This document shows positions 1-57,151 of a stretch of DNA of 64,000 nucleotides, one piece after another. The DNA is taken from positions 434,001 through 498,000 of the forward strand of contig JAWMAR010000256.1 of NCBI GenBank assembly GCA_036785375.1, in the 5' to 3' direction. The notes under the pieces are model-generated. The model saw only the letters and a program-made list of their open reading frames with translations, had not been told where the DNA came from and did no database searches. This DNA is from Leucoraja ocellata. Taxonomy: Eukaryota. The stretch's first letter is position 1. Each line of letters opens with the position of its first letter. Made by a program: the position numbers and the translations under genes.

Positions 1-830
1 GTGAATGGGGTGAGGGGAGGGGGAGCTCTCCTAAAGTCTACTATCAATTCCACTGTCTTAAGGGCATCGAGCTCTTAATTGTTGCGATGGCACCAGGACG
101 CCAGCTGTGTCACTTCCTGTCTGTAGGCAGATTCATCCCCACCCTGGATCAGTCCAATCAGGGTTGTGTCATCCGCAAACTTGAAAAGCTTGACAGAGGT
201 CAGTGAAGGTGCAGTCATTGGTGTAGAGTGAGTAGAGGAGAGGGGAGAGTACGCAGCCTTGCGGTGCTCCTATGCTGAGGGTTTGCGGGTCCCAGATGTG
301 CTTTCCCAGCCTCACATGCTACTTCCTGTCTGTCAGGAAGCTGGTGATCCACCGACAGAGGGGTTCAGGCACAACTTGGAAAATTTGGAGTGTATTAGCT
401 CTAGCACAATGGTGTTAAATGCAGAGCTAAAATCAACAAACAAAATCCTTGCATAGGTCCCCTGGCGGTCTAAGTGCTGGAGGATGAAGTGCAGGCCCAG
501 GTTGACTGCATCATCCACAGATCTATTGGGCCGGTATGCAAACTGCAGAGGGTGATATTTTTCATCTGGGCCAGCACAAGCCTTTCAAGGGTCTTCATGA
601 CTACAGAGGTCAGTGCGACGGGCCTGTAGTCAGTAAGACCAGTAATCCTTGCCTTTTTGGGCACAGGGACAATAGTGGAGACTTTGAAGCAGGCAGGGAC
701 AGTACAGGTTTGCAGGGACTGGTTGAGAATGTCTGTGTAGACCGGTGCCAGTTGTTCGGCACAGAGCTTGAGAGTAGAGGGGAAAACATTGTCTGGTCCT
801 GGAAATTTACGGCTTTTCTGTCTTCTGAAC
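1..830 (-). mobile_element. Rex1/Babar-type LINE reverse transcriptase fragment (frameshifted)
   Basis: ORFs 470-868 ([50 protein letters not shown]) and 333-518 (YARILFVDFSSAFNTI), plus a reverse-strand KFADD motif near 170-190. Confidence 0.9.
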
Positions 831-1410
831 AGCCTCTCCAATATAACAGATATATAACAGATATACAAGCCTGATGTTGTGCAGCACGGAGGGGATGGGT
901 AATTGGGTGTTTATGTGAATGCACATATATGGTACATGCATATAATTGGAGGGTGGTTTTCAGATGAATTGCTAGTTTCTTGCTTACTTTGCTGCATGGT
1001 ATACGGCATTTATCACTGCGCCATCTATGTCATTCACCCACCAGGAAGGGGGGTACAACACAAACTATATGGTGAGAATCAGGAGAGCTATCATGACACG
1101 ATCTTTCTGAAGTCAACCTGATACTGTACCCATGAACCAAACATGGGTGGAAAAGGATACTGGGTTAAAATTAAGTGAGTGGAGCACCTTCATTGGATGT
1201 ATATAGTCTCATATGACATGCAGTTGATATTTGCTAATTAGCCAAATATTCAGAGACCACTATCAATATGATTTTGGTGGAGTGCAATATTGTACATTTA
1301 ACTACATGAAATGCAATCTTCTGCTGCTGGGTTCTTAGAAATAGAACCTTCTGCTTCTGGTCAAATTAATAAAATTACAGCTGGCGGATGAATCCATGGT
1401 GATATTATAC

Positions 1411-2089: not shown

Positions 2090-2850
2090 ATCTCTTTGTA
2101 TATGGGAGATTGGATCTCACAAATCTGATTACGTTTTTTGAAGATGTAACCAAAGCAAAGTTAATGAGGACAGAGTTGTAGACATTGTTTATATGGTTTT
2201 CTGCAGTATTCGACAAGGTTGCTCTGTAAGTTTAGTCTGCATGGGATCCAAGGAGAGCTAGGTGACTGGATAGAAAATTGGCATCATGGGGGGAAGCAGA
2301 GGGTGATGATGGGAGGTTGTTTTCCAGACTGGACTGTGAATAATTGTGTGCCTCATGGTTCAGTACTTGGTCAGATACTGTTTGTGATTTATATCAATGA
2401 TTTAGATGAGAACGTGCAAGGCGTAAGTAAGTTTGTAGTTGACACTAAAGTCAGTGATATTGTAGAAAGCAAAGATGGCTGTCAAAGGTTACAGCAGGAT
2501 CTTGATTGGTTGGGCAGCTGGACGGAGGAATGGCTAATGGAGTTTAATCAAGAACCAGAGGACATAGGGGGAAGGGGGGGGGGGGGGGGGGGGGGAAGAA
2601 TTAACAGGAACCTGAGGGGGGATTTTTTTAATGCAAAGGGTTGTGGGTATATGAAATCAGCTGCCAGTGGAGGTAGTTGATGCATATACTATCACAATGT
2701 TTAAAAAACATTTGGACAGGTACATGGATAGGATAGGTTTAAATGGACATGGGCCAAATGCAGGCAAATAGGACTGCATCTTATAGATGCGGCATCTTGT
2801 CAGCATGGGCAAGTTGGGCCAAAGGGTCTGTTTCCATGCTGTATGACTCG
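2090..2850 (+). mobile_element. CR1 LINE remnant (RT region with internal deletion plus 3' UTR)
   Basis: ORF 2219-2680 VPHGSVLGQILFVIYINDLD..SKFVVDTK..LQQDLD; typical shark CR1 3' end ending tgtatgactc. Confidence 0.88.
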
Positions 2851-4492: not shown

Positions 4493-5259
4493 AAGATGGA
4501 CATAAAGTACAGGAGTAACTCAGTGGGTCGGGCAGCATGTGTGGAGACAAAGGAAAGGTGATTCTTTGGGTCGGGACCCTTCTTCAGACTAATTTTCAGG
4601 TTGGAAACAGTTTCCACGCTGCATCTCTCTACCTCTGAATACATTCTGAACTTCATTTTTTTCCAATGCAGAGCACATTATGAACAACATAGGCCAAATT
4701 GCATGAACCTGCCCCATATCACACATTCCTCTCTCACAGAATACTTGCAATCGCATTTACATTTGGCAGCCACAGCTAATCCTTTGGTCCTATCAGTTTG
4801 GTCATGGGTCTGATGGGCTCATCACCTCATCAAGACCTCGTCTGTCCATTCCATCCACAGATGCTGCCTAACCCACTGAGTTACTCCAACACTTTGTTTT
4901 ATGTTCTGTATTCCAGCATCTGCAGTCTTTTGTGCCTCCCATTGGTCTTGCCACTGTTATTTTGCTGTGCAGCGGCCTACTTGTGGACCATTCTAAAATA
5001 AGGCTATTTTCCACTGTATCTAAAGATCAATTTAAAATAATTTAAAAAACTCAAACTTTCAAGCAATAAACATATTCAACCTGTACAAATTAATTAAAAC
5101 CAATAGCATTAATTATAATTTTAAAAAAAAGAAGCAAATCACCTTCTCTTACCACTTTAGCTGAGGTCAGTGGCTCCATTCAATAAGTAATATCAAACTG
5201 AGGAGAGAGATGAGTAGTGTATGTAGCTCTTCAGCTCTAGATATAATGGATGACACTTA

Positions 5260-5876
5260 AGCCCCTGTCCCACTTAGGAGACCTAAACAGCAACCTCTTG
5301 TGATCTTGCCCGCCACCCAAAAAAAAATCAAGGTCGAGGTGACCTGCATCCTCCTACCACCTCCCAAGCATATGTGTCCAGGTTCAGGAATAGCTACTTC
5401 CCCACAGCCATCAGGCTATTAAACCTGGCTCGGACAAAACTCCGATCATTAATTCCCCATTATCTGTTATTTGCACTTTAGCAGTTTATTTATTCATGTG
5501 TGTATATATTTATATAATGGTATATGGACACACTGATCTGTTTTGTAGTAAATGCCTACTATGTTCTGTGTGCTGAAGCAAAGCAAGAATTTCATTGTCC
5601 TATCAGGGACACATGACAATAAACTCTCTTGAACTTGAACTTGGACCTGCGACTAAAAAATTATCGATTTTTAAAACAGCAACCTATTTTTAATCGAGGC
5701 CGGATTTAATCATGATGAAAAAATAGCAGCAACCTAGATGAAGCCTCAACCACGCGGAAACCACTTTCAAACATTAGGGAGAGTGACCAAAACCTCCGGT
5801 GACCTCATGGAAACCTTGGGTGGCGGGCAAGGTCACCAGAGGTTGATGTTTAGGTCTCCGAAGTGGGACAGGGGCT
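5260..5876. mobile_element. MITE with ~60-bp TIRs and TTA target duplication (PIF/Harbinger-like), containing a nested LINE 3' end
   Basis: TTA|agcccctgtcccacttaggagacctaaac...gtttaggtctccgaagtgggacaggggct|TTA. Confidence 0.88.
5378..5644 (+). mobile_element. Rex1/Babar-type LINE 3' end nested in the MITE
   Basis: aggttcaggaatagctacttccccacagccatcagg (RFRNSYFPTAIR) followed by a UTR and a (CTTGAA)n tail. Confidence 0.75.
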
Positions 5877-8195: not shown

Positions 8196-10749
8196 CCATT
8201 GACACCAAACACCGTGCTATCAAAGTATAATTTGTGTTAGGATATTCCAGGTTTAACACCTCATTTAATAAATTGTACTCAACCATTTGAGTTCTGTTTC
8301 AGCTAGGTGATTTCTGTGAAGGTACAGTAAATGCCCATTAGGATTGATAGTATTAGTCCACTCCATAATAGATTTGATATCATTGTATAACTACGAAAAG
8401 CTGCAATGGATCTCCTATACTGTTGCTCATTGTAAGTCAAGAAGGATATAATTTTAATGGGACTTGAGTACTCACCATGTAATCCATAATATATTATTCT
8501 GACACAAAGTTGGAATGATATGTAACCAGGATTGTCATTTTTAAGATCACATAATCCATCTGTTATAAATGGACATATATTAAGTTTACTTATAGCCTAA
8601 TTGTTGAAATGCAAATTGTGAATTTAATTAGAGAAAAAAAGTTGGTCCCTATAATTCCATAGTTTCAAGGAAATTTGTTCCACTGATGAACATGAAATCC
8701 GGAAAAAATAGGGCGCTATTACATAACCCTTATGCATTATGATCTGAATGCTTTAAAACAAAACTCCAGTACAGAACAACCTTAATCCTTTGTACTGCTG
8801 GCTTTAGTTGGTGTCGCAGTTAGTTACCTCATCGAAGCCATGTTGAGTAGAATGATGCAAATTGCTGACTCCAGGATGGGAAAGAACGTCATATCACAGG
8901 AAATTAAATGGACATTCCTGTGTCTTTTTGTAGTTTCCCCTAAGGGAAAAGGCATGGGATTAAGCCACAAACCCATCTTTTCATCTGTAAGAATGTAAGG
9001 CAAAGAAGTTAAAGGAGGTTAGATTACATAAGAAAATGGGATGATTTTTCTGCATGAAAATGCATCCCATTTAACAAAGAAAACTCTTAATATAGCACCC
9101 ACTGACCTGAGTATTTCAGCAAAATATCAAATAATCACATTTATTCATGTAGCAGCTATTGTGTGCTAAATTGACATAAAATATCGACTCATTGGCTTGC
9201 AAAAAAAAAAAATTACAGATTTAAAATCGAATAAATTAAAATAGTATGTTGTTTTTTAAATTTGTTACTAACTTCAAAGGAGTTTATTAAAAGCCGGAAA
9301 AAAGGATAACGTGCTTGAAGGAAAGGATGTAGATTTAAACTCTGAAAGCTTCCTTTTTCTCATTCTGAATAGGAAGCCCAAAGTGTTCTCCTTCTTTAAC
9401 ACAAACACTTCATTATATTCAGCGGTGAGCTGCTGAGGTAACATCTTTAAAAATAATGGTCTATTTACCATTAGCTGAAGTAGTTGAAAGTTTTCCAGGA
9501 AGCATGAAAATGGTGTCAGAAAAACTAGTCTTAGCAGGTTTGTACGAAAGAACAGTGTTGTGACTGGGTGATTTATAACAACAAAAGGTATCCAGAAAGC
9601 ACAATTTTCTACCTAGCTGCAAACTATAATTCATACTGAGTTCTTATCAAGATAAAGTACCTTTACTGCAAATGACCAATGCGGTTAAATTATTTTGATA
9701 AATGTCAGCACATAACAGGTAACTGCATTACAAGCAGCCAGGATCAACTGGAGTTACTGCAAGATGCATTGTAAATTGTACTTTGCTCCCCACTTCCTCC
9801 CTCCCCAATCTATGTTTAAGCTCTTTGACCAGCTTGCCAGTGTGTACTGTTGACTTCAGGTAGTGCTACGAGAAGATTGGAGGAATTCTGTTCGCATCAC
9901 TTAAAATGTGGCAACAACTTATAATGAGGTAAAGGTAATGGCGCAAAATATATATATATTTGAAGCATTTTGTAAGTGGCCGGAAGATATGTATTACTTA
10001 GAAACAAAACTCAAGTCTTCCCATTAAGTTAACACCTTGTTAACAATTAAGTCTTTACAACAGGTAAAGGCCAAAAGTAAATGGAAAATTAAATATATTG
10101 CCTTGGAATTGAGAAAATTCACATTATTTCCAACATATATTTCCATTCTAATTTCCTCAGGAAAGCCTAGAAACTACCCCAGAACAGGTTTTGGCATAGA
10201 AATTAAATTGGTGGCTAGTTTTGGGAGATGAGGTGAATCAATTTTGCCCCATTTCTACTTTCTACTAAACAGCCAGAGATGGTAACATCAAACTGATGCC
10301 AGTAAAATAGGCAATTTGACTTACTTCATTTATTTATAAGACTGATGGATGAGGAAACTTTTTATAGGAAAAAATAGGAAACTGAAAATGAGGAATCAAA
10401 TTAGGAAATGTGAAAAGCATCATGAGCATGAGAATCAAAAAGCAAACTGCTGGAGGAATGTAGGAGGTCACATAGCATCTGTGGAAGGAAATGGACAGTC
10501 AATATTTTGGGTTGAAACCCTTCCTTGGACTGAAAAAGTGGGGGGGAGGAAATAGCTAGTGTAAAGAGGTGAGTGAGGTAAGCAGGAGCTGGCATATGGG
10601 TGGATCCACTTGTGGAGGGGTGGTTTGGTGGATGGATTTAAGTGGGGAAAGAGGGGTGATGATAACAGCAAAGGATTGGCCATGATGAGAACTACAGATG
10701 ATGGATGACTGCAGATGATGGATTCTAATGGAAAAGGAAGGTGGAGTAT

Positions 10750-11449: not shown

Positions 11450-12310
11450 ATCAAATAAGAAAAAAGGATACATGGCAAAGGTGATTAAGTGTGTCTCTTA
11501 AAAATATAGTGTGTATAGAGAACTTAGGAAAAAAATTGGAAGTGCAAAATGGGGCCAGGAAATATCCTTGGCAAGCAAGATTAATGAGACATTCTGTAAG
11601 GATTAGGAAAAGAGCAGGTCCTCGTAGTAACAAAGGGAGAATCTGTGTATGGCTTCAGAAAATGTGGGTTGGGCTCTAAATAAATATTTCTCATTTGTAT
11701 TCACCATGTGGAAGGGCATGGAAGATGGTGAGTTCAGAGAGGGGTACATAGATAATTTAGAGCGGGTTAATATTAAGTAGAGGTAAAGGTTACGGGGCGT
11801 ATAATAGCCAATAAATCCCAAAGGCCAGATGAGATCTATCCTTGGTTCCTATGATAAGCAAGGGGGGAACTGCGGCCCTGGCAGAAATTTTTACAGAAGG
11901 AGTTTTAAAAAGGATTTGTATGGAATGTTTGTTACCCAGAAAATAGTTGATGTCTGGAAACCACGGCCAGAGAGTGTGCTGGAATCAGATACAACCATGA
12001 AGTTTAAGAGGTATATTTACAGGCAAATAAATTGACGAGACATGGCAAGTTTGGTGTAGGAAGGAACTGCAGACTCTGGTTTACACCGATGATAGACATA
12101 AAGTGCTGAAGAAGGGTCTCGACCCAAAACATCACCCATTCCTTCTGTCCAGAGATGCTGCCTGTCCTGTTGAGTTACTCAAGCATTTTGTGTCTCTGGA
12201 AGGGTTTGGGCCTCGTATAGGCAAATGCGATTGATGTAGATGGGCAAAAGAGTTGGCATGGATGTGGTTGTCCAAAGGGCCTGTTTTGTGCTGTTCAACT
12301 CTATGACTCA
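11450..12310 (+). mobile_element. Older degenerate CR1 fragments with a Penelope-derived insert (12055-12195)
   Basis: CR1-like aaatatttctcatttgtattcacc and ccaaggccagatgagatctatcc; 3' end ctctatgactc. Confidence 0.6.
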
Positions 12311-13018: not shown

Positions 13019-13124
13019 AAAATCAGGATTACGATCAACGTGTTCAGTGTGTTGCAAAACTGGTGAAGAAACTTCCAAAACCTAACCACGATACCTTGAG
13101 CGTTCTCGTTACACATTTACAGAA
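13019..13124 (+). CDS. ARHGAP15: ARHGAP15 penultimate coding exon (RhoGAP domain, 106 bp, phase 1 start / phase 2 end)
   Basis: Acceptor ttttcacccaacAG and donor GTAAGC. Translates (K)NQDYDQRVQCVAKLVKKLPKPNHDTLSVLVTHLQK, matching the RhoGAP segment of ARHGAP15 (human recalled as KQDNNTRIEAVKSLVQKLPPPNRDTMKVLFGHLTK). Missed by the ORF track. Confidence 0.92.
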
Positions 13125-13917
13125 GTAAGCACACAAAAAAAGTTATTTATTATTTATTTTAATATGCAAGATTCCTTCTATAGTTTTCATTCCCTTTACA
13201 AGAAGTATAAAATTCTGGTCTTCTAGCACTTAAAACTGCAGGCGAAAGGTTCCATCTGATCGTTTCTGCTTTAGCAATATGTTAAATGCATTCTTTCAAA
13301 ATGCATGGTGGAAGAGATTAAATGTAGAAACTACTACCGTAGAATTATGGTGCTATTAATAGAGGGATTTTGTACTCTCATCCCTGAAACTAAGGCGGCT
13401 ACCAGTTTGCAAAAAGGCAATCAGGAAGCTTTTTTTTATGTCCCCTTGCAAGAAAGAAAGAGTTTTCATTTATATGGTGCCTTCCAGATACAAAGCATAT
13501 GATAATGATTCAAGGTCTGTTTTATGAAAATAAAAATGCAGAAAGCACAGAGATAAAGTACTAAGATTATTTTGATGGTACAGTGAAATTGGAATGACCT
13601 AGCAACTGATTGTTCAGGAAGCCTGATGGTGCTGCATCTGGTTCACTCGTTTATCTAGACTATGAGTCTAGAGGGTAAGCGTGGAGTGCTGCCAGAGCCA
13701 GGGGTTCAGGGTACGGCTGAAGCTGGGTTATGGACTGTGGGCCAGAGAACAATAGGAACTGGAGTTGGGGTTGGGGTTGGGGTTGGGGTCCAGTACATCA
13801 GGGATCAAGAAGGTGGGTAAATTTGCAACTGGATTCACAGTTCAGAGAGCTTGTGTATATTCCATTTCTTATTGGGTAATATGTTTAAATAATTAGCATT
13901 ATTATGACAGCAATTAT

Positions 13918-15117: not shown

Positions 15118-15340
15118 AGGTAGACACAAAATGCTGGAGTAACTCAACGGGGCAGGCAGCATCTCTGAAGAGAAGGAATGGGCGATGCTTCGGGTCGAGA
15201 CCCTTCTTCAGACTGAAGAAGAGTCTCAACCCGAAATGTCACCCATTAATTCTCTCCAGAGATACTGCTGTCCTGCTGAGTAACTCCAGCATTTTGTATC
15301 TATCTTCAGTGTAAACCTGCATCTGCAGTTCCTTCTTGAA
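15118..15340. mobile_element. Inverted (head-to-head) pair of Penelope-derived short elements, palindrome axis at 15212
   Basis: agacacaaaatgctggagtaactca...cccttcttcag A ctgaagaagag...tgagtaactccagcattttgtatct. Confidence 0.85.
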
Positions 15341-15431: not shown

Positions 15432-15620
15432 AAAGTGCTGAGGTATCTCAGCAGGTCAGACAGTAATTCTGGAGAACATGGATAGCCTACATTTAGTGTC
15501 GGACCCTTCTTCAAACCATGTTCTCTATCCATGTTCTCCAGAGATGCTGCCTGACCTGCTGAGTTACTCCAGCACTTTGTGTTTTGCTCAATATTCCATC
15601 ATCTGTAGTTCCTTGTGCCT
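15432..15620. mobile_element. Second inverted pair of Penelope-derived short elements
   Basis: aaagtgctgag..ctggagaacatggatag mirrored by ctatccatgttctccagagatgctgcctgacctgctgagttactccagcacttt. Confidence 0.75.
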
Positions 15621-16794: not shown

Positions 16795-17098
16795 TACAGA
16801 GATAAAGTGTGGAAAAAGCCCCTTCGACCCAAGAAGTCCGCACCGCCCAATGATCACCCGTACACTAGTTCTATGTTATCCCAGTTTTGTATCCTACACA
16901 CTAGGGAAAATTTATAGAAGCAAATTAACCTACAAACCTGCACATGTTAGGAAGGTGGGAGGAAACTGGAATACATAGAAAAAACCCATGCGGTCAGAGT
17001 GAGAATGTACAAACTCCATACAGACAGAACCCATGGTCAGGATCAAAACCAGGTCTCTGGCACCGTAAGGCAGCAACTCTACCGTTGCGCCACTGTGT
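16795..17098 (-). mobile_element. HE1/V-SINE
   Basis: Reverse complement reads cacagtggcgcaacggtagagttgctgccttacggtgccagagacctgg. Confidence 0.82.
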
Positions 17099-17630: not shown

Positions 17631-18942
17631 CAACTAAGCAATGCCTGCAATCAACAAATCCCAAACACCATTTAGACATGGGCTGTTAAGTGGCAAGTAA
17701 CATTTGTTCCACAAAAGTACTCTTAATGAACACCTACCCTGGCATTTGATGGCATTACTCTCACTGAGTTTCCACCATTGATATCCTGTCGTCATCAATG
17801 ACCAGAAACTCATCTGACCTGCCATGTAAATACTGTGGCTACAAGAACAGGTGAGAGGCTGGGAATCCTGTGGTGAGTGACTCTCTTCCTGACACTCCAG
17901 GACAAGAGTCACAAGCACAGCAAGAAGCTCAACACTATTCTAGGCGTCATCATTTTGACTGGTACCACATCTGATGCCCTAAATATCAGATGCCCTAAAC
18001 ATCAGTTTTGCCTTCCACTGCTGCAGTATGAACCGTCTATAAAATGGACTACTGTTACTTTCCTAGACTATGCTAACACACTTCCCAAATCTGTGACGTC
18101 TACCATCAAGAATGGCAAAGGCAGCTCGTGTATAGTAATACCACCACTTGCGGTTTGCTCTTCAAGTGGCACCATTATTTTGACTTGGAAATGTATTATC
18201 ACTGGATTTAAATCCTGGGAACCCCTAATCAACTACAGTATGTGCAGAAGTGCCTTTACTCAAAGTACGGCAAAGGTTTTCGGCACAGTACGTGCCTCAT
18301 CAGTACTTTCTCAAGGACACGGGCCTGGATGTCGAATTTTTAAAAAGACAGAAAAAGCTGTCTGCTGAACCTGCACTCGGGTTAAATAGAAGAAATTGGC
18401 TGCTGGGAGAAAGATAAGTGAAACTTTTTTTAAATTTTAATTAAATTATTGAATCTCTATTTGTCTGTATAAAACACTCATTCAGCAGCTGTGACAGCTT
18501 TAACAGCTGGCTAGTTCTGTGGCGGGGCTTCACCAGATTTAAAAGTAATTCTGTAAGTACAGCCATCTGCCTGGGCAGAGATAGATCCTGTGCCACTGTG
18601 CTCTGCACTGCAAAGCCAAAGTGCTGGGAGTCAGGCTTCCAGCAGCAGAATACATCCAAGGCCATGAAGGAAGAAATTAAGTTAGGCAGCCAGTGGTGTT
18701 AGAACATTGGAAGTTCAGCCCCACTTATTTAGCTCCTTTCTCCACAGATTCTGCTTAACCTCTTGAGTAGTTCCAAAATCTCTGGTAATATTTCAAATTC
18801 CCAGCATCCACAGCATTAGGCCTTTGTATCTACCTGTATAAAATGAACAGAAAATAAGTACACTTTTGCCAATAATGGTAAGCATATAAAAGGAACGTCC
18901 ATTATGAATTTGAATACAAAAAATTGTAATATGGAAAGTTGA

Positions 18943-19335
18943 TGGCATCTCTGGAGAAAAAGAATAGGTGAATATTGATTTCTCCAATTTCAGGTAATCC
19001 CAGCATTCCATCTTTCTCTGCCCCTCCCTCAGCCTAGTCATCCTGCTAGTTCCATTGCTTGCATCCATATATCCCTTCATTATCACCTCTTCCACAGCCA
19101 ACAATGGACCATTGGGGGTTCACCTTTGCCTTGGTCATAGGTGTCGGCTCTGATTTGTTCTGAACCTTTTAATACCTCTAATTTCTCTCTCCCCTGACTC
19201 TCAATCTGAAGAAGGGTCTTGACCTGAAACGTCTCCTCTTTATTTTCTTCATAGATGTTACCTGACCCGCTGAGTTACTCCAGCATTTTGTGTCTATCTT
19301 CAATGTTAACCAGTTTCTGCAGTTCCTTCCTACAC
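18943..19335 (+). mobile_element. Penelope-like element 3' end (ORF end plus pLTR with hammerhead-like core)
   Basis: gtgaatattgatttctccaatttcaggtaa (.NIDFSNFR*), pyrimidine-rich UTR, ctgaagaagggtcttgacctgaaacgtc, and a short inverted piece at the 5' side. Confidence 0.8.
19206..19233 (+). ncRNA. Putative minimal type I hammerhead ribozyme core
   Basis: CUGAAGA-A-GGGUC(UU)GACCU-GAAA-CG-UC: all core nucleotides present with a GUC cleavage triplet. Helix I is weak in this copy. Confidence 0.6.
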
Positions 19336-22300
19336 AAAGTTGATGGCATGACTGAACACACATTGCATTCTTAAATGTTACTTGACCACCCTCTTATATT
19401 CAAGGATCGTCACAGTCAAGTATGACCTGTACCAGGTTTCCAGATTTGGTGATGCAAGTCATTTCTCAATTTGGATTAATACATTTCTATTATTATTATT
19501 GTCATAATTTAATGTTATATTGGAAAATCACATGTAAATATTCACATAACCACTCTCCTAACTAATTGTTGTAGCATCTCTACGTGTCAAAGTGTCAAAT
19601 GACAAATACATTCCAAGTATAAACAAGATGAGAAAAGTTGCAGACACCTTTTGTGCATATCATACATTATCACATTTAAAATATAGACAGATTGATAAAT
19701 GCAAAGTAAATTTAATTTAATTAGCATTAACTGACAGTTCTTCTTGTCGAATCCACACACAAGATAAGATGTTGTTCAGCCAGAGCTGAACACACTTCTC
19801 GGCATCCGCATACAATGATGTCTGCATTGCGCTTCTTGGTGGAAAAATTGGTTTAAATAGGGCTGCGACATGAAAGCTCTTTCCTTGATACTTTACACTG
19901 AACACTGATACTTTAGTTAACTTTTGATTAGCTTGATTATAAAATGTTTCAAACTGAAACAAATGAATTATTTATACACTTATTAAAGAAGAATATATTG
20001 GGCAGCAGAAATTTTGAATCTTTTTCAAACTAATCAAGACCATATAAAAAAAGTAGCAAGTATCTCAGGTTGTTGCCTAAGTGATGCATTAGCCCAGATA
20101 TACTGCCTATGCATTTAATAGTATTTACTGATAATATTGGAAAGCCATCGAGCAGATCTTATCAAGCAATGTACCTTAGCAATATCTGGGTTTTGTATAA
20201 TTTCCTTCTCAGAGATAATTGTTGACATAACTGTCCAACCCCGAGGTAGGTGGGTAGAGTACAAGTGAAATGGTCGTGAAGGTCGATAGTATTTAAACAA
20301 CATGATAATCACTTCAACAACCATTTCCTTTAATAATACTCTAGCTCATGGAAAAAAAACCTGTCAGAGATATGCAAGATTATGATTAAGATATCAGCTA
20401 GGTGAAGATTTATATCTGTCTTCTATGCAAAACAACAAAACAGACAACTCAGCTTCTACCTTTCCCATCTGACCTTTTACATTACAGTAATTGCCACTCG
20501 TTATTTTATCATGTAACCGGTGTACAATTGCTCACTTTTCTGTGGAATTACTCAGTCCCTCTTTCATGTGTCATGAATTAACTGCGTTACCAATGTGTGC
20601 CTGAAGCAAGGGAGCTGAGGATTGATTCATTTCCTCCGTAAAATCCTGGGGGATGGGGAGGGGAGGAGCGGAGTGGAAAGGTGAGGAGAGAAGGGGTCCT
20701 TGTGAATGAGGGAAGGGAATGTGTTGAATTAAGATTGGAAAATGGTGGAGCAATGGTGATACCTTTTGTGGTCAGGAAAAAGGAAGAAGAGCTTTTTAAA
20801 GTATGTTTCTTGAACATTCAACTCTGCTGGGCTGTGCATCATTTACACATGTTGCCACAAGTATTCTGCATACTTCTTACAACTAATCAGGGATGCATTT
20901 TGTTATTTTAGTTGATGATTCTTGTCCTTGAAGTCTACAATCATCCAACTCTTCAGCCATAATGAACTTTATAAATGGGTCCTGGGAGATGGGAGCTGTC
21001 GCTAATTAATATTTAAGAATGGATTCTGCAATCATTGATGAAGGGACAGTAACAATTCTGACTTAAAAAAAGGTTCCCTACAATTACCTTGCCAATTCTA
21101 TGGCATGGCATCTTTCCCAACACTGGTTCTGACAGGTGTAAATTCAAAAGGACCTTTGGCATCCAGTGACTGGAATATCATCAATGTAAGTAAGCAGCCA
21201 CTGAAATTGCATACGAGATAGTGAAATACCATGCTCTGTATTAAAAAAATATATATATATATATTTTGTTACCTTCAAATTCATCATGGTTGTATATATT
21301 TTTCCAGGAAAATTGCAAACCGCATATAAAATTAGATATTTAGTTCCAGCCAGATTGGTGATCTATAATTATGGGCTCAGAATAGCACCAAAATGTCACT
21401 TATACCATACATCAATGTATAAACTTTAAGGATGTTTACAGTGAAAAAGGTTTTTGTAAACCTAAAGTTCATTGACACAAGGAGGTCATACTGTGGAAGA
21501 TTGCAAGTCAGTGCACGATGCAGGGGATAATTCATGAAAACTTTTGGATTTCCATCTTTGAATCCATATTTAAGTACTCCGAAAGTTAGTGTTGGTGTCA
21601 CAATCTCTAATGTCTGCGAATACCAACAACATTACTGCAATCATAAACCTGGGCCTTTAAATTGGCCTAATGCTCAGACCATATGAAAACACAATGTCAC
21701 TCCAATAAAGTTAGCAGTATGTGGAACTCTTGTTCAAGATTGGGATTTTTTTGTACAGATTTGTATACTGAAAAGTTTAGCATTTATTTATCTCGAAAGT
21801 AGGCTTGGTGCACATCTTTAATTGAGGACAAAGGTATATAGATGAACATTTTGATGAAAAGCTGAGGGCAAAGGTAGGTCAAGAGACATTTTGATGAACA
21901 ACTGAGGGAAGCTGTATATAGACAGACATTTTGATGAAAAACATCAGTTTGAAATAAACAAGGAAAGATACCCCACTCAAATGCCCTGGAACTGCCAGGA
22001 GCATCCATTTCAAAATGTTTATTACTTTTAAAGGAGGTTCTTCTGCAGGAAGAGTGCTTTCATTACTCGGTAAGCATCATGTTGCAAGACCATCCTCATT
22101 ATGCATTGTGATCAACTTATGAATTTACCAGGGAGCCATATCCATTAGTCTTTCGGGAGGTAAATGACCTGTGAAGGGACAAAACCAAAAAATGCAATGA
22201 AGCCAATTTTCATCCATCTTCAAGCGTGCTGATTTGAATTCAAGCTAAGTGATCTGTTAATTGTCATATAGTCATAGTACAAACTAGCAATTTGGATATT

Positions 22301-22387: not shown

Positions 22388-22460
22388 AGGCTGAAGAAAG
22401 GTCTCGAGCCGAAACGTCACCCATTCCTTCTCTCCAGAGTTACTTCAGCTTTTTGTGTCT
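22388..22460 (+). mobile_element. 73-bp Penelope-derived insert with hammerhead-like core and 19-bp flanking duplication
   Basis: atcttattttgggtgaaga at 22369-22387 and 22461-22479; core ctgaaga...gaaacgtc at 22391-22418. Confidence 0.82.
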
Positions 22461-22794: not shown

Positions 22795-23070
22795 ATTTAG
22801 GTTTAGGTTAGAGATACAGCATGGAAACAGACTCTTCAGCCCACCGAGTCCACACCAATCATCGATCACCCATTCTAGTTCTGTATTATCCCACTTTTCC
22901 ACTGACTTCCTACACATAAGGGCAGTTTTACAGAGGCCAACTAGAACCCCACTTTTAGGAAATCCACATGGTCACAGGGAGAACATGCAAACTCCACACT
23001 GACAGCATCCAAGATTAAGATGAAAACCAAGATTCTGGCACTGTGAGACAACAACCCTACCAGTCATTGT
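22795..23070 (-). mobile_element. HE1/V-SINE
   Basis: tttaggtttaggttagagatacagcatggaaacag (tail) ... gggagaacatgcaaactccacac. Confidence 0.78.
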
Positions 23071-25344
23071 GCTGATGGCAACTTCAAATGTTGGCTCCCA
23101 ATAGCTCCATTGCAACAGAGAGAGCATTTGTAGAAATGTATTTCCTATACTTCTCAGAATTTTCAGCCTACAAAACTACTGACATTACTGGATGACATTC
23201 TCTCTCGCCCCCATTGTCAGCACTCACTTTCCCACAGCCCCAATCACATGAATGTGGAAAGAACAGAGGTTGAGTTCTAATACTGACAATCTCTAGAGCT
23301 GCACCCATATGTATGCTGTAAATGCTTTTAGTAAAAAGGTGCTTCCTTATGGTTGTGGCAGACTACCTCTTGTTATAATGGAAAATCAATTAATATGAAG
23401 CAATGGAACCATTTTAGGTTCATTTATTGGTTCAAAATTGGTTCTGATCATTTAACTGATAAATCATGGGATGTTTAAATATTAAATAAGTTTTCTTTCT
23501 ATGATAAGAAATTGATTACAAAAGAGCAATAGAATGAACTAAAAAGTATCAAAATAAGTGAGCATGAAATGAAATGACATCAGTGAATTTGTTGATACAT
23601 ATTGAAAACTCTCACTTACCAGAAAATACAATGAGAATTATGCTTCTGAGGTGCAAGACAGCTGCTAATCATTGTTTATCTATTTAAGCCACCATCTTTA
23701 GAGTTGCATTGGTCATTATCATGCTTAATTTGCTCTCATGTTGGTGATCTCATGTTACCTTTAAGATAAAAAATAGACTATCTGAGACAACATATTTCTA
23801 ACAGCTCTTTAGCTTTATAAAGACAGATGGATGCCTGCCTCAAATATTTCTGGGATACTTTATGGGAGTGCCTCCAGTATTTGTCAGTGCCTCCAGTATT
23901 GTGGGTGTCACACCCATACCTACTGATGTGGTTCAACTTTATCCTGGAAAGGCATGGAATTAAGCAACTCTGGATTGTCTACATGGATACTTTTGATCTA
24001 AATTGCATTGGAAACCACTCCAAAATTAAAAGCATCTGTAAAAATGTGAAATGTTTGTTTCCTATGTCTGGTAGAAACAACACCAACTCTTTTAGGCACA
24101 TGTTCATGTCAAGGGGGAAAAAAAAGAACTTATTCAGAAATAACTCCAGGGACATTCCTTTTACATATTATAGAAAAGTTTTAATCTATATTCATTGACA
24201 TCTTTTAGCTATTTTAATGTACTTTGTGAAGAATTGTTTCTAATTTGCTACCATGTTCGCAAGAAAATTAGCACCAAGATTAATGAAGAATCTTGTTATG
24301 TAGTATAATCAAAGCCATTTGAGAGATTGCACAATTAAATGTGATGTCATTATTTTCCAACATAAATACATATGACGGTGCCAGTTCATTTCTTGTGGTG
24401 AAAAATGAGAAAATGTAGTTGAATATTTCTTAAACAATCCTGATGTTTAATTGATTTGAGGCAGAAGGTAACCTCCACACAGTGTTCTAAGATGTGTATT
24501 GTGTAGACTTTGTAAATGTGACAATTTTACGTAAACGTCAACTAAACACAAAGTACGTGATTACAAGTTTGCATTGTTCAGTGTTCACGGTGTTCCGATC
24601 GTCAGGAGATGCTGGAGGCAGGGAAGCGAGATCTTCTGTGCACAAAAGAAAATCCTGTGTAAAAGTGATCTCAAACCTATCTAACTGACCTTCAACACAA
24701 CCACTGTACTTATGACCCTAATGAGGTGTGCCGAAGGGCAAGAAAGCATCAGTAACCAACTGCTATATCCTGTTGTATTATGGTTCAAATTAGATAATAA
24801 TTAATTACTCACAGAATCTTCAGTGCTGCGTAAACATGTTGGGATGTTGCCATTTATGTTGGCTGCCATACCACCTCAGTGCCATTTGTTTGGCCATTAT
24901 TGTTACTGCATTAGCTCCCCTAATACTTAATATCTATTCTAACTCACATTACACCTTCCATGTTTGTCGTTCTTAACTATTGTCAATCTTGATTAATGAA
25001 CCTTCATTAATAAACATCCTGTTTTCTGGTTTCCACCTTCAATTGCTGCTGTTGCATGGAATCAATTAGTCCGTACAATGTGATTTATTCTGCTAAGATC
25101 TTGGGAGCAGGTCAGAGTTCATTGATGTTAATTGTAACAGTTGCGTTTCCATACTAATAACAATGCCTTCTCTTTTTTAGCTAGATGGATTTTTGAAAAA
25201 AACATTTGACTGTTGTACCAACTGAACTCAAAAGACATTTGACTTTTAAACTTCTTTCAAATTTGTCAAATCAGATAGAAGTCTTTCACAACAGGAAAAC
25301 CATTGAATTCATCCTTAAACTCTTTGTGGGTGTAATTCAATATG

Positions 25345-27040: not shown

Positions 27041-27214
27041 NNNNNNNNNNNNNNNNNNNNNNNNNNNNNNNNNNNNNNNNNNNNNNNNNNNNNNNNNNNN
27101 NNNNNNNNNNNNNNNNNNNNNNNNNNNNNNNNNNNNNNNNNNNNNNNNNNNNNNNNNNNNNNNNNNNNNNNNNNNNNNNNNNNNNNNNNNNNNNNNNNNN
27201 NNNNNNNNNNNNNN
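27041..27214. other. Assembly gap (N run)
   Basis: 174 N. Confidence 0.99.
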
Positions 27215-28204: not shown

Positions 28205-28427
28205 GCCCGTCCCACTTAGGAAACCTGAACGGATACCTCTGGAGACTTTGCGCCCCACCCAAGGTTTCCGTGCGGTTCCTGGAGGTTTTTGTCAGTCTCC
28301 CTACCTGCTTCCACTACCTGCAACCTCCGGCAACCATCTGTAACCTCCGGGAACCGCACGGAAACCTTGAGTGGGGCGCAAAGTCTCCAGAGGTTTCCGT
28401 TCAGGTTTCCTAAGTGGGACAGGGGCT
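28205..28427. mobile_element. Near-palindromic MITE (79-bp arms) inserted in a CR1 3' remnant
   Basis: 28209-28287 is the reverse complement of 28342-28420 with 3 mismatches; terminus gtgggacaggggct as in the 5260 element. Confidence 0.9.
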
Positions 28428-28969: not shown

Positions 28970-29712
28970 AAGGACACAAAGTGCTGGAGTAATTCAGCTT
29001 GGTCAGCCAGCACCTCTGGAGAGCATGGATAGATGACTCTTTGGACAGGACCCTTTTCAGACAGATTATGGGGGAGGGGGCAAGAAAGCTGGAAGAAAGG
29101 AAGAGCAGGACAAAGCCTGACAGCTAATAGGCAGAAGGGTCTCTTAAAACGTCACCTATTCCTTTACTTCAGAAATGTTGCCTGACCCGCTGAGTTACTC
29201 AAGCATTTTGTGTCTACCTTCGGTGTAAATCAACATCTGCAGTTCCTTCCTACACTGGTAATAGCTTGATACAGGTGAAGAGGTGTTTTTACAGGCAGAT
29301 GGCTGGATAAAGGCCAGTAGTGAAAAGATAGAATGTGTGAGACAAAAATAGTGATGAGTTATAAATTGTGAAGCTAGAAGAAGGAATTAGGTGCAATGGG
29401 AGAAGAGAAATAGGTGCAAGTTCAAGTGGGGGAAAGGGCAGGGGCTAGGGGAAAGAAGTGTGGGATGTGAGGATAGAAGTAAGGGGTGGGGGTTGTGTTT
29501 ACCTAAATTTGGAGAATTCAAATATTCATACTCATTGGGTTGTAAGTACCCAAGTGCAATATGAGATGCTGTTCTTCCAATTTGCATGTGGCCTCACTCT
29601 GGCCAATGTAGGAGGCTCAAGACAGAAAGGTCATGTTGGGAATGGGAAGAGGAGTTAAATTATTAGTATCCAGGAGAACTAGTAGGCCTTAACGGACTGA
29701 GAGCAAGTGCTT
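28970..29712 (-). mobile_element. Penelope-like element 3' portion (GIY-YIG end plus pLTR), with nested short copy 29133-29255
   Basis: Reverse strand reads degenerate HL.SVR.GLL..P...FNS.SHS...GLLH..SEAT.KLEEQHLI..LG.LQP..MNI.FS.F. Confidence 0.8.
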
Positions 29713-30122
29713 GATCTTCCAAGGCCTTCTGGATCTCTCAATTATTAACCATTTAATCTCAACTTCCATTCTCATACCGACCTTTTTGCCTTGCACCATC
29801 GCCATTGCCAGACTGAGGCCACACAAACTGGAGGAACAGCACCTCATATTCTTTGGTGGTTTATAATCCAACAATCTGAACATCGAATTTTAGATAACTA
29901 CCCCCACCCCCTTTGTCTGATCATCTGCCTATCAAAAATCCCCTCACCCATATCAACCTTGTACCAGCCAGACCTTCTCCTGTCCGTCATCTCTTCCAGC
30001 TTTCTTCCCCACCCACCCCCACCAAAATCATTCTGAAGAAGGGTCCCAACCTAAAATGTCACCTGCCCATATTCTCCAGAGATTCTGCCTGTAAACCAGC
30101 ATATGTGGTTCCTTATTTCTAC
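29713..30122 (+). mobile_element. Penelope-like element 3' portion, inverted relative to the adjacent copy
   Basis: cattgccagactgaggccacacaaactggaggaacagcacctcatatt (CQTEAT.KLEEQHLI); pLTR ctgaagaagggtcccaacc at 30033. Confidence 0.8.
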
Positions 30123-33093: not shown

Positions 33094-33215
33094 AGGTGTA
33101 TTGATCTTATAGAGGTGTATTGGTCTTATGGAGGTGTATTGATCTTATAGAGGTTTATTGGTCTTATGGAGGTGTATTGGTCTTATGGAGGTGTATTGAT
33201 CTTATAGAGGTGTAT
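33094..33215 (+). repeat. 19-bp minisatellite (6 units plus partial) derived from CR1 coding sequence
   Basis: aggtgtattgatcttatag / aggtgtattggtcttatgg units running into CR1 DLIEVYKIM. Confidence 0.9.
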
Positions 33216-33839: not shown

Positions 33840-34020
33840 TAAAAACACTAGGTGCTGGCGTTGCTCAACAGGTCAGGTAGCATCTCTGGAAGACAAGGGT
33901 CTGAAGTAGAGTCCCAACCTAAAACATTGCCTATCCATCTCCTCCAGAGATGCTGCCTAACACGCTGAGTTACTCCAGCACTGTTTTTCAATATCAGCAT
34001 CTGCAGTTCCTTGTGTCTCC
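33840..34020. mobile_element. Penelope-derived inverted pair
   Basis: caggtagcatctctggaag mirrored by ctccagagatgctgcct; gggtctgaagtagagtcccaacc core variant. Confidence 0.7.
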
Positions 34021-43269: not shown

Positions 43270-44720
43270 TTGAAAGGTTAGATTTGTTCAGGGTAAATCC
43301 TGTTGGACTAACTTGACTGAGTTTTTCTGAACAAAATAACTTAGAAAGCGGATGGAGGTGTTGATGTGCATATGCATGGGGAATTTTGTGTTTAATAAAT
43401 TGGGTGCTTGAGAGAATAATGCATTGCAGCGTTCATAGCAAAATGAAAGTCCATGGGTTAGAAAAAATTGTAGCAGCAGTGAGGCAAAATTGATAGAGGG
43501 GCGGAAAGAGGTTTGTAGTGAATTGGTATTTTCAAACATAATGGAGATCTATATAATGTCCTTAAGCTACAACTGTATTGGATATGCATTAATGATTTGG
43601 ACGTTGCACACAACACAGTCAAAATAAGCAAATGACACAAAATGATTTGAATATAATAGTCACTGAGGATTATGAGAATAAACAGAATAAAGTACTCGGT
43701 AATTGTCAGACACATACATGGTAGTTGAAATTCAGATCAGTTTAGTTTATTGTCTCGTGTACTGAGGTACAGGGAAAAGGTTTTGTTGCGTGCTATCCAG
43801 TCATCAGAAAGACAATACATGATTACAATTCAGCCATTTACAGAGTATAAATACACGATAAGGAAATAATGTTTAGTGCAAGGTAAAGCCAGCAAAGTCC
43901 GATCAAGGATGGTCCAAGGGTCGCTAAAGAGGTAGGTAGTAGTTCAGCACTGCTCTCTGGTTAGGTCATAAGTGATAGGAGCAGAATTAGGCCATTCGGC
44001 CCATCAAGTCTACTCCACCATTCAATAATGGCTGATGTATCTCTTTGTCCTAACCCCATTCCCCTGCCTTCTCCCCATAACCCCTGACACCCGTACTAAT
44101 AAAAAATCTATCAATTTCTGCCTTAAAAATATTCATTGACGGCCTCCACTGCCTTCTCTGGCAAAGAATTTCATAGATTCACCACCCTTGACTAAATAAA
44201 TTTTACTCATCTCCTTCCTAACGGAACGTCCTTTAATTTTGAGGCTATGACCTCTCGTCAAAGACTCTCCCACTAGTGGAGAGATCCTCTCCTCATCCAC
44301 TCTATCCAAGATGGTTGTGGTAGGATGATTCAGTTGCTTGATAACAGCTGGGAAGAAACTATCCCTGAATCCGGAGGTGTACGTTTTCACACTTCTATAC
44401 ATTTAGCAAATGCTAGTTTACACCAAAGATAGACACAAAATGCTGGAGAACTCAGCAGGTCAGGCAGCATCTCAATGAGGCTAATGAAGGGTCTCGACCC
44501 AAAACATCACCTATTCCTTTTCTCCAGAGATACTTCCTGAACTACTGAGCTACTCCAGCATTTTGTGTCAAACTTGAAAAAAATTGTTTTATCATCTAAA
44601 TGCTGAGAGACTCAAACAAAGTGTAGCGAATGCACTCCTTGATTTTTTTTATGGCAAGCAGATATATTCTGGATAAGCAATGGTGTGAAAGATTATGGAG
44701 CATGAGTGAGAACGATGTAG
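43270..44720. mobile_element. Nested cluster: old CR1(+) > Rex1-type 3' end(-) 43735-44400 > CR1 3' end(-) 43965-44308; Penelope-derived pair 44410-44572
   Basis: The Rex text breaks at ctctctggtt and resumes at tggttgtggtaggatgattcag, as in the uninterrupted copy at 48060-48100. Confidence 0.78.
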
Positions 44721-47209: not shown

Positions 47210-47502
47210 TTTAGACCTTAGAGATACAACATGGAAACAGACCCTTTGGCCCATGAAGTCCACGCTGACCAGCGATCACCCCATACACTAACACTATCCT
47301 ACATACGAGGGACAATTTACAATTTTACCGAATTAACCTACAAATCTGTATGTCTTTGGAGTGGGCGAGAAAACCGGAGCACCCGGTGAAGACCCACATG
47401 GTCACAGGGAGAACGTAAAAAACACTATACATAATCAGGATTGAACCTGGGTCTTTGGCGCTGTAAGGCAGCAATTCTACCACTGTGCCACTGTGCCACC
47501 CC
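47210..47502 (-). mobile_element. HE1/V-SINE
   Basis: Ends ggcgctgtaaggcagcaattctaccactgtgccactgtgccacccc. Confidence 0.85.
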
Positions 47503-48452: not shown

Positions 48453-48619
48453 ATCCGATTCAGAAACTTCCCCAATGCAAAATGAATGTAGATAATCTTT
48501 AACATAATAAGAACTAATAAAAATTATGTCACTGAATAAGATAAAACCACTAGTTTTCAACTTACACCACATATGCAACGTATCTTGTAATCCATATCTT
48601 TACTTTACTTATTACAATA

Positions 48620-48915
48620 CAGAATAGAAACAGGTCCTATGGCCCACCAAGACCACATGGACAATTGGTCACCTGTTCACACTAATTCTATGTCATCTCA
48701 CTTTCTCATCCTCTTCCTACACATCTGGGGCAATTTTACGGAGGCCAATTAACCTAAAAACCCACACTTTTTTGGAATGTTGGATGAAAATCGGAGCACC
48801 TGGAGGAAAGCCACAAGATCGCAAGGAGAACATGCAACCTCCACACAGACAGCACCAGGATTGAACCCAGGTCGCTGGTTCGGTTAGGCAGTAGCGCTGT
48901 CACTGTGTCACCATG
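48620..48915 (-). mobile_element. HE1/V-SINE
   Basis: ggagcacctggaggaaagccac..ggagaacatgcaacctccacacagacagcacc. Confidence 0.78.
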
Positions 48916-54754: not shown

Positions 54755-56065
54755 TATTTTTTTTAATAATTATTTTTATTAGAAGCATATGTACAAATAA
54801 TAATAAGCGACAATTTAATTACAGATTTCTTACATAGCTTCAGTTTTTTTTTTTTAAGAGTAAAGATAAAGGGAGAAAGAGATGAGAGAAAGTAATGGAG
54901 AGAGAAGAAGAAGAAGATATTTTTAAAAAAGGAGACGCAGAGAGAAACAACCAATGACAAGATTATGGGGACAGATCCGGGAAATGTTGAATGTAACTAT
55001 TCATCCAGTCCAAAACTCAGGTTTCAACCCTGATTATGTGTTAAACCAGTTTACCTTTTCAAATATTCAATAAATGGAGACAAAAAGTTCTGGTTTATCA
55101 ATTAAGACAAGTCTTATTTTTTCCAAATGCAAGGTCTCAGTCATTTCCGTAACCCACATTTTAATTGTGGGGGCTGCTGGTTTTTACCAAAATTTTAGTA
55201 TTAACTTTTTTGCAGTTATCAGGCTGTAGTCAAGAAATTGACTCTGACTTGTCGTAAAGTTTGTAGTATGTTCTGATAATCCTAATATTATTAATTTTGG
55301 CTCTGGGTCCAATTGGATATTGATAACTTCAGAAATAATTTTTAAAATGTCCACCCAGCCATTTTGAATTTTTATACAAGTTACAAAGGTATGCATTGTT
55401 GGCTTCTTGAAATTGACATCTATCACAAAGCGGGGGAAAATATTTGGAAAAATCATATTTAATTTTACCTTCAAATGATGTAGTCTGTATAATATTTGAA
55501 TTGAATCAAGGAGTGTCTAGCATTTAGCGAACAGTGATTTATATATTGTAAACTTTCATCCCATGTGTCTTTTATTATGGGTTGAGCCAACTCGTCTTCC
55601 CATGCTCGTCTACATGATTCTGAAAACGGGACCTCAGTATCTAAGAGGATATTATAAATATAAGATATTAATTTATTTGTGTTAGGATGTCTATTCAAAC
55701 ATTTATCAAGGGTTTCTGGTACAAGTCTGTAATCTTGCATTTGTAGTTTTACATAGTCTCTAAGTTGCAGATATCTAAAAAAATGATTAGTGTGTAACTC
55801 GTATATCTGTTGTAGTTCCTGAAATGAGAGAAAAATACCATTTTGGTAAAGGTCTCCCACTGTTTTAATTCCATGGGTTTTCCATTGAACAAATCCTCTA
55901 TCTAGAACAGACGGTTTAAAAGAAGGGTTATTTGTAATCGGGGAAAAAAGGGATGTATTACCCAATTTTAGAGTGGGTTTTAGTTGTTTCCACATACGTA
56001 TAGCACTATGAATAATCGGATTTCCTCCGTATGTTTTTTTATTCAAATTAATCGGAGCTAAAAAA
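54755..56065 (-). mobile_element. 5'-truncated L1-clade LINE with 12-bp TSD
   Basis: ORF 55471-56046 is fish-type L1 ORF2 C-terminus (FFRYLQLR..AWE.EL..LIQFK); A-rich tail; TSD ctgacctataat at 54743-54754 and 56066-56077. Confidence 0.9.
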
Positions 56066-56967
56066 CTGACCTATAATATTTATTTGCAATGGAATATCAC
56101 TCAAATATGGATTACATTAGTCCATACGATACAATACGATAGAACTTTATTGTTTCCAGGAGGAAAATTTGTCTGCCAACAGTCATGAAACACAACAAGA
56201 TACATGGAACATGAAATTAAAGTGACGAGTGGAAAGACCAGGATTGAGGATGTTCAAAGATTGTGGACGGGGAAGGAGAATCAGTCTACCCTATGACAGA
56301 AGGGGGGAGGATACAGCTTGATAGCCACAGGGAAAAATGATCTTTTGTGGCATACACTGTAGAAGCAACTAAGCAAGTTAGGAAGTAACATTTTATATTC
56401 TATTCTGTGCACTAAATGTGCCAAACTAACATCTTAAATGGGATTTCTTTGATCACTATTTGTCTTTATTGGTTTACTGAATACAGAATAGGCAAATAGC
56501 AACTCCTAAATGCAGCCTTTTTTTAAACTAAACTGAGGACAGATGGTGTTTGGCCCAGATTGAAAAACATTGTTGAGATGGCCTATTGACGGATTAGTGA
56601 AGTCTATAGAGGGATCTATTCAGGTTTTAATCATTTTGTTTTTGACCAAATTCATATCAGTAAGTCAGAAATCAGTCCATCTTCAGGATTGTATTAGTTC
56701 ACCTGTATTTGTCCATGTTCAACCAATTAAGATACGATAGTGGCGGTTAAGAAGCTCTTAAGAAGACACATGGTTCTGGACATGTATGGATCATGTTCAG
56801 GCAAATAAGATTAGTATATCTTGGCACCATTTTCGGCCCAGAAGTTGTGGGCCAAAGGGCCTGATCCTGTGCAGTACTTTTCTATGTTCAATGTTTCATG
56901 TTCTAATTAGTGGAATGAAACTGACTGACTGGTTCTCTTTTCTCTTTTCTCTTTTTTTAAATTCCAG

Positions 56968-57151
56968 GATAATAGCAAAGGCAATGGTGAACCTGATGTT
57001 GTCGCAAAGTGTAGGCATCGTATTTGGACCAACTCTTATGTGGCCTGAAATGGAAAATTCAAATATGGCAGTGAACATGATGTACCAAAACCAGATAATC
57101 GATCTGATACTTACCGAGCATGCTGAAATCTTCAACCCCGAGGGGTTGTGA
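56968..57151 (+). CDS. ARHGAP15: ARHGAP15 final coding exon (RhoGAP C-terminus to TGA, 184 bp)
   Basis: Long polypyrimidine tract then ttccAG. AA|G completes a Lys codon in frame with the upstream exon. IIAKAMVNLMLSQSVGIVFGPTLMWPEMENSNMAVNMMYQNQIIDLILTEHAEIFNPEGL* carries the NLM..GIVFGPTL RhoGAP motif and the ARHGAP15/12/9-type 'NMA..M.YQNQI' tail. Confidence 0.93.

Follow-up and report, generated by a model that had tools for sequence, protein, structure and literature searches.

A window of 64,000 nucleotides from the skate Leucoraja ocellata (contig JAWMAR010000256.1, positions 434,001 to 498,000) contains about 20 short, decayed copies of a repeat that carries a minimal hammerhead ribozyme core. 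In all likelihood these are truncated or inverted pseudo-LTR (pLTR) ends of Penelope-like elements (PLEs), probably of the Neptune type, and each copy taken individually is predicted to be dead. The copies carry the motif in high number, together with target duplications, inverted 5' partners and an optional tail, and every scored copy has lost at least one required element.

The last exon of the host RhoGAP gene is 92% identical to Amblyraja radiata ARHGAP15 (the best of 11 matches), and on this exon comparison the host gene is ARHGAP15, nearest to that of skates. Its penultimate (13020..13125, plus strand) and last (56966..57148, plus strand) coding exons both lie within the window, which places the flagged copy in the 43.8-kb last intron, in sense orientation. 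The window also holds an assembly gap of 174 bases (27041-27214) beside a (TCAT)n tract, and LINE-like decayed frames at 473-910 (minus), 2168-2677 (plus) and 55474-56070 (minus), the first two with weak, sub-cut-off RVT_1 matches and the third with none. A minisatellite (33094-33215; 19-bp unit, 6.4 copies) lies within a LINE-like stretch, and inverted arms of 82 nt at 28206-28423, 95% complementary and 54 nt apart, are related to 5775-5872. A separate dispersed SINE-like family of about 300 nt (16796-17097, 22808-23075, 47218-47495, 48611-48915) has no relation to the hammerhead repeat.

A 31-mer motif allowing at most three mismatches matches the window six times and 100 shuffles not at all; at up to 10 mismatches it finds 15 ungapped copies, against none in five Markov controls. 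The profile built from the copies recovers 31 pieces in the window (29 at E<1e-3) and none in the reversed window. The hammerhead part is present in 20 pieces, a density of one per 3.2 kb. The initial annotation had proposed some 20 copies with a shared hammerhead-type consensus and a very high abundance of roughly one copy per 3 kb, and both figures hold. Its positions are right within a few bases; several of the copies are on the minus strand (cores at 4587, 41986 and 57767), and its position 4495 marks the opposite end of the copy whose core is at 4587.

The family is abundant beyond this locus. When reads and contigs were matched to a 451-nt stretch at 80% likeness, 152,254 of 20.4 million and 170,925 of 24.9 million contig records matched in two runs, as did 41,913 of 12,895,792 records in a polyA RNA run, none of these counts being a copy number. 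The RNA runs used belong to a run group whose species label differs from that of the best-matching source. No RNA dataset is listed as containing the exact stretch, and an exact-pattern scan of viral, prokaryote-genome and metagenome contigs returned 0 loci. The skate genome probably holds above 100,000 copies.

The majority of the 15 ungapped copies reads AGU, CUGAAGA, A, GGGU-CUCG-ACCC, GAAA, CG, UC, ACC, and the family reads concur (G at 19204, C at 19220 and 19225, A at 19234). The core bases C3 U4 G5 A6 N7 G8 A9, G12 A13 A14 A15.1 and U16.1 H17 are all present in the family majority. The closing pair of helix II has G10.1 in 14 of 15 copies and C11.1 in nine, 86% of helix II cells are paired, and the 15.2-16.2 palindrome (majority ACGU) is without a stable helix III. 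An extra base between positions 9 and 10.1 is A in all 15 copies. The hammerhead of the CChMVd viroid likewise has an extra A after A9, a comparison drawn in the initial annotation. It is unneeded, and a viroid-like origin of the base is ruled out, because an extra base belongs to the consensus of metazoan PLE minimal hammerhead ribozymes (min-HHRs), NNN CUGANGAH-helix II-GAAAN-palindrome-NUH (Fig. S3, PMC4209133). The family consensus agrees with this published one in every letter, bearing out the proposal of a PLE-type minimal type I hammerhead in a pLTR.

The core of the flagged copy (19206..19233, plus strand) consists of CUGAAGA, the extra A, GAAA, the CG palindrome and UC, with a predicted cut after 19233. 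Its helix II is GGGU/ACCU with a G10.1-U wobble; at the position of the helix I 5' strand (19201..19205, plus) it has A at 19204, against G in about 90% of family reads. A second copy (22391..22460, plus) has an intact core, an internal deletion, two of four helix II pairs and a 19-nt target duplication (22369/22461). That 19206-19233 and 22391-22418 keep all core nucleotides was correctly recognized, and 15213 does too, making three of 15. The helix I of 2-3 bp credited to the two named copies is in fact 0 bp in both; it is 2 bp in the majority and 5 bp in the subfamily of 10496-10532. Judged by their predicted pairing, 19206 and 22391 are unable to form a complete hammerhead.

None of the 15 copies combines an intact core and helix II with a helix I of 2 bp or more, in agreement with the view that most copies are inactivated. 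G12, at a CpG, is G in seven copies and A in eight, which confirms the suspected decay of GAAA to AAAA. A type I hammerhead search had been recommended: with a descriptor of core and helix II, 19206 is the sole match in the window, there is none once helix I is required, and the Rfam search at E<=5 gave four chance matches and no hammerhead. When six single copies were folded, all z-scores were -1.1 or higher. Individually, the window copies are predicted to be catalytically dead.

An old sister-subfamily hammerhead (10496..10532, minus strand) has a 5-bp helix I (CAGUC/GACUG) and a decayed core, and helices I and II both form in its predicted lowest-energy fold. In the main family the innermost helix I C-G pair of this subfamily is missing on both strands, the one paired helix I indel between subfamilies, based on this single copy. 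In the pLTR 3' of the flagged core (19234..19296, plus) the family majority holds UCUCCAG, the predicted partner of the CUGAAGA box (pairing probability about 0.96), in a fold predicted to lie 8.6 kcal/mol below the hammerhead-like one. With its 2-bp helix I and predicted sequestered core box, the dominant subfamily may never have cleaved. By nearest-neighbour energies, which ignore core contacts and make this a weak line of evidence, a double-hammerhead dimer reaches -6.1 kcal/mol versus -21 to -28 kcal/mol for other dimers.

The covariation check suggested earlier yielded no two-sided compensatory change in the helices among the 20 window copies, and pairing was below the shuffled mean. Differing cells number seven of 142 at non-CpG core sites versus 82 of 542 at non-core sites (P=7e-4; cells from truncated or gapped copy ends dropped), a test that is biased because the copies were chosen partly by their core. 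Much of the non-core variation falls at subfamily-diagnostic sites. CpG sites, catalytic G12 among them, differ in 31 of 90 cells. The pattern fits selection on the parent elements and neutral decay of the copies, the helix I point coming from one copy, and we infer that CpG decayed fastest.

The flagged insertion is bracketed by a 14-nt target-site duplication (left 18935..18948, right 19336-19349). Within it, in order, are an inverted 5' piece of the pLTR (18945..18971, minus strand), whose own 5' end lies in 3-nt microhomology around the predicted cut site; the final nine codons of the element ORF (18971..18997, plus; NIDFSNFR and stop), 208 nt upstream of the 19206 core; about 200 nt of pyrimidine-rich pLTR from the ORF stop to the hammerhead (18998..19200, plus); and, after the core and the pLTR 3' of it, an optional 3' tail of about 35-40 nt (19297..19335, plus) that is found in about half of the copies. 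Two of three long copies have a donor-like AG/GTAA where the ORF stops (18990-18997 in the flagged copy), and a pyrimidine tract with an acceptor-like CAG immediately precedes the core (19190-19206). These splice-like signals point to a putative pLTR intron, retained in the copies, with its end at helix I, an arrangement that has been described in D. virilis (PMC4209133).

Other copies have similar anatomy. Target duplications of 11-19 nt were found in eight of 22 insert windows, and another match, of low complexity, was discounted. There are head-to-head inverted pairs at 12051-12195, 15118-15335, 15432-15614, 28973-30100, 33840-34020 and 44405-44575; in the palindromic pair at 15118..15335 the cores (15211 minus, 15213 plus) are joined at a TCAG-A-CTGA centre. 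The 3' ends fall into two classes about 35 nt apart, and diagnostic sites point to several subfamilies. The copies look like separately inserted, 5'-truncated or inverted pLTR pieces of several subfamilies, and not like the single very high-copy non-autonomous family that had been proposed. Truncation at the 5' end, inverted partners, junction palindromes, two 3'-end classes, an optional tail of 30-40 nt and target duplication are described as hallmarks of PLEs (PMC8557442, PMC3846280).

Three copies are preceded by an endonuclease-like end. The first is a frameshifted C-terminal remnant, Neptune-type GIY-YIG endonuclease-like (29749..29890, plus strand), which is followed by pLTR and, about 140 nt downstream, by the core at 30033. 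The second is inverted (29500..29690, minus), 74% identical to the plus copy, and shows the pattern E..LI..L.T..P..N; its pLTR extends to a core at about 29060 and holds a younger, tailed copy (29133-29255) nested in opposite orientation. The third is the nine-codon end at 18971, which matches the last part of the 29500 remnant at 87%. Penelope ORF ends had been noted at 18970 and 29880; the former amounts to these nine codons including the stop, the latter is the longer frameshifted remnant, and the minus-strand one at 29500-29690 had been missed.

Compared by eye with Fig. S2 of PMC8557442, both longer remnants are similar to Neptune/Naiad endonucleases in the H..HS, E, N region. From that figure the pattern E..[WL][IM]..[LA].T..P was derived; it has one six-frame match (29574, minus) versus 0.015 per shuffled window. 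Searches with the remnants gave 0 Pfam matches, no homologue and no solved structure; protein searches returned three unrelated repetitive proteins, and the Atlas leads were all sub-threshold. The GIY-YIG motif itself is absent from the window, as is the element's reverse transcriptase, every copy being truncated before it. With the protein database searches blank, we infer the clade, and even the PLE identity, of the protein; it looks nearer to Neptune/Naiad than to Poseidon.

Copies begin preferentially at the 5' edge of the hammerhead core. Relative to C3, the 5' starts of 16 of 28 pieces fall in -8..+6, none in +7..+23, and three in +24..+33 around the cut site (+28); among the 25 pieces starting in -60..+70 the clustering is significant at the 5' edge of the core (P=6e-10) and not at the cut site (P=0.30), these junctions being hand-read, blurred by microhomology, in several cases without target duplication and possibly non-independent. 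Across the family, nine of the 15 joints listed involve 19205-19206 and depth climbs steeply there; a mismatch at 19204 in the reference pulls alignment ends to the same place. On the simplest reading, uncleaved RNA was the source of the copies, and strand joining at the core 5' edge is favoured by the TCAG-T-CTGA palindrome together with the complementarity between core and downstream sequence.

The same clustering could arise if a single short non-autonomous master, or a small number of them, resembling SINEs or retrozymes, gave rise to most copies; such masters would start at the hammerhead 5' edge and be mobilized in trans by PLE proteins. This is a possibility to be weighed, though an unfavoured one. 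The concentration of starts, the rise in depth with the converging DNA joints, and a similar junction common to copies 12106 and 40295 all speak for it. The 5' junctions nevertheless vary from copy to copy, using microhomology with the target or the partner; four copies extend upstream into three different pLTR sequences; and the diagnostic sites define several subfamilies. Nor is there a tandem array of the unit among 17 tandem-repeat entries, unlike in retrozymes, and for want of head-to-tail units retrozyme identity is ruled out.

Under the preferred reading of truncated and inverted pLTR ends, selection would have maintained the core in active parent elements, where it would have served as a weak ribozyme assisted by dimer formation or by protein, in line with publications on other PLEs. 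The element endonuclease and reverse transcriptase would have begun priming in the tail region, on a single target strand or on both, copying mostly uncleaved RNA and stopping near the 5' edge of the core. The ends would then have been joined by microhomology, and the inserted copies would have decayed neutrally, fastest at CpG. A bolder version is speculative and rather improbable: that the dominant skate subfamily is a switched-off hammerhead, with its 2-bp helix I and UCUCCAG-locked box, which reached more than 100,000 copies by way of uncleaved RNA, with copying that stops at the 5' edge of the core, an acceptor-like CAG/U palindrome, and not at the cut site. If true, the fossil 5' ends would be a genome-scale in vivo record of a PLE hammerhead as a reverse-transcription stop and strand-joining site, and cleavage by PLE hammerheads would be gated by protein or dispensable.

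It is very improbable that host pre-mRNA is still being cut by some of the intronic copies, whether singly or as neighbour dimers, with effects on ARHGAP15 or other genes. The very high RNA abundance in the polyA run, the three copies with all core bases and the spacing of only 257 nt between the same-strand copies 16135 and 16392 could be taken as signs of it. Against it, no copy combines core, helix II and helix I; sense copies are not depleted, 10 of 18 intragenic copies being sense to the host (P=0.81, no strand bias); and published min-HHRs are without activity as monomers and of low activity as dimers (PMC4209133). The earlier suggestion to look for RNA ends after GUC found no pile-up of read starts or ends in two RNA runs, cut site included, which is a weak test of cleavage. 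No sign of ribozyme activity in host pre-mRNA was found in these runs or in strand bias. Decay and the lack of strand bias also rule out host co-option.

Two joints in the RNA reads were recorded. A back-joint 19290->19225 (66 nt) has 741 reads in one RNA run and 88 in another, with none among the contig-run joints listed; it is off the cut site and is more probably due to tandem duplication at an expressed locus than to a circle. An opposite-strand joint from the ORF end (19000) to 19233 (C17), with 250 RNA reads from 85 starts, may have arisen because the mismatch at 19234 shifts where alignments end. A minus-strand excess in the single-cell run was set aside as a possible product of internal priming on the purine-rich strand.

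A chance resemblance to a hammerhead, in a repeat that never held a ribozyme, is likewise highly unlikely: the lack of an Rfam match up to E=5, the lack of covariation in the window and the hammerhead fold of the majority at 8.6 kcal/mol above the predicted minimum are outweighed by conserved positions, extra base, G10.1-C11.1 and palindrome that all match the PLE consensus and lie where expected, past the ORF stop, and by the 5-bp helix I kept in the sister subfamily.

The closest known systems are the PLE min-HHRs, of which Cervera and de la Pena (2014) give the extra base, G10.1-C11.1 and the palindromic 15.2-16.2 as recurring traits (PMC4209133). The skate family has in common with them the type I order, CUGANGA with the extra base, the G10.1-C11.1 pair, GAAA, a two-base palindrome without loop 3, UH, and the site after the ORF stop; as here, thousands of dispersed solo copies come from truncated elements. 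The fish examples in that source, CUGAAGAA...GAAA C G U C, are like the skate family, and no cartilaginous fish is among the supplementary alignment rows compared. Helix II in the skate main family has 4 bp and a tetraloop, and its 2-bp helix I is under most of those listed there (3-5 bp) and equal to that of D. virilis (2 bp). No publication on elasmobranch hammerhead ribozymes was found in the literature searched, and the skate family may be undescribed in detail.

The Poseidon element PAc of Anolis carolinensis (Frangieh et al. 2024, PMC11167929) also has a pLTR hammerhead, a tail between two reverse-transcription start sites, and no RNA-seq reads ending at the cut. It inserts from uncleaved RNA, as is proposed for the skate copies, and in vitro its insertion did not require cleavage. 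PAc is an active element with experimentally tested, protein-assisted cleavage, whereas the skate window has relics only and a Neptune/Naiad-like endonuclease end. The non-LTR retrozymes of Li et al. (bioRxiv 10.64898/2026.07.22.740005), with one cartilaginous fish among the reported hosts, are derived from PLE pLTRs and carry a type I hammerhead, as in the skate; they form head-to-tail tandem units with a hammerhead in each, whereas the skate copies are solo or head-to-head. In Adineta vaga the Penelope elements are low-copy (Arkhipova et al. 2013, PMC3846280), in contrast to the skate family with its target duplications of 11-19 nt and probably above 100,000 copies.

The arrangement itself has been known since 2014, and the skate family is a further member of the PLE minimal hammerhead class, here as relics that are predicted to be dead. 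Since PLEs were already known to carry min-HHRs, the initial recognition of the motif is correct but ordinary. For the role of PLE hammerheads, a skate genome with a copy every 3 kb gives well-powered material: its copies allow insertion starts to be tested against the cut site, and selection on core and helices to be tested across subfamilies.
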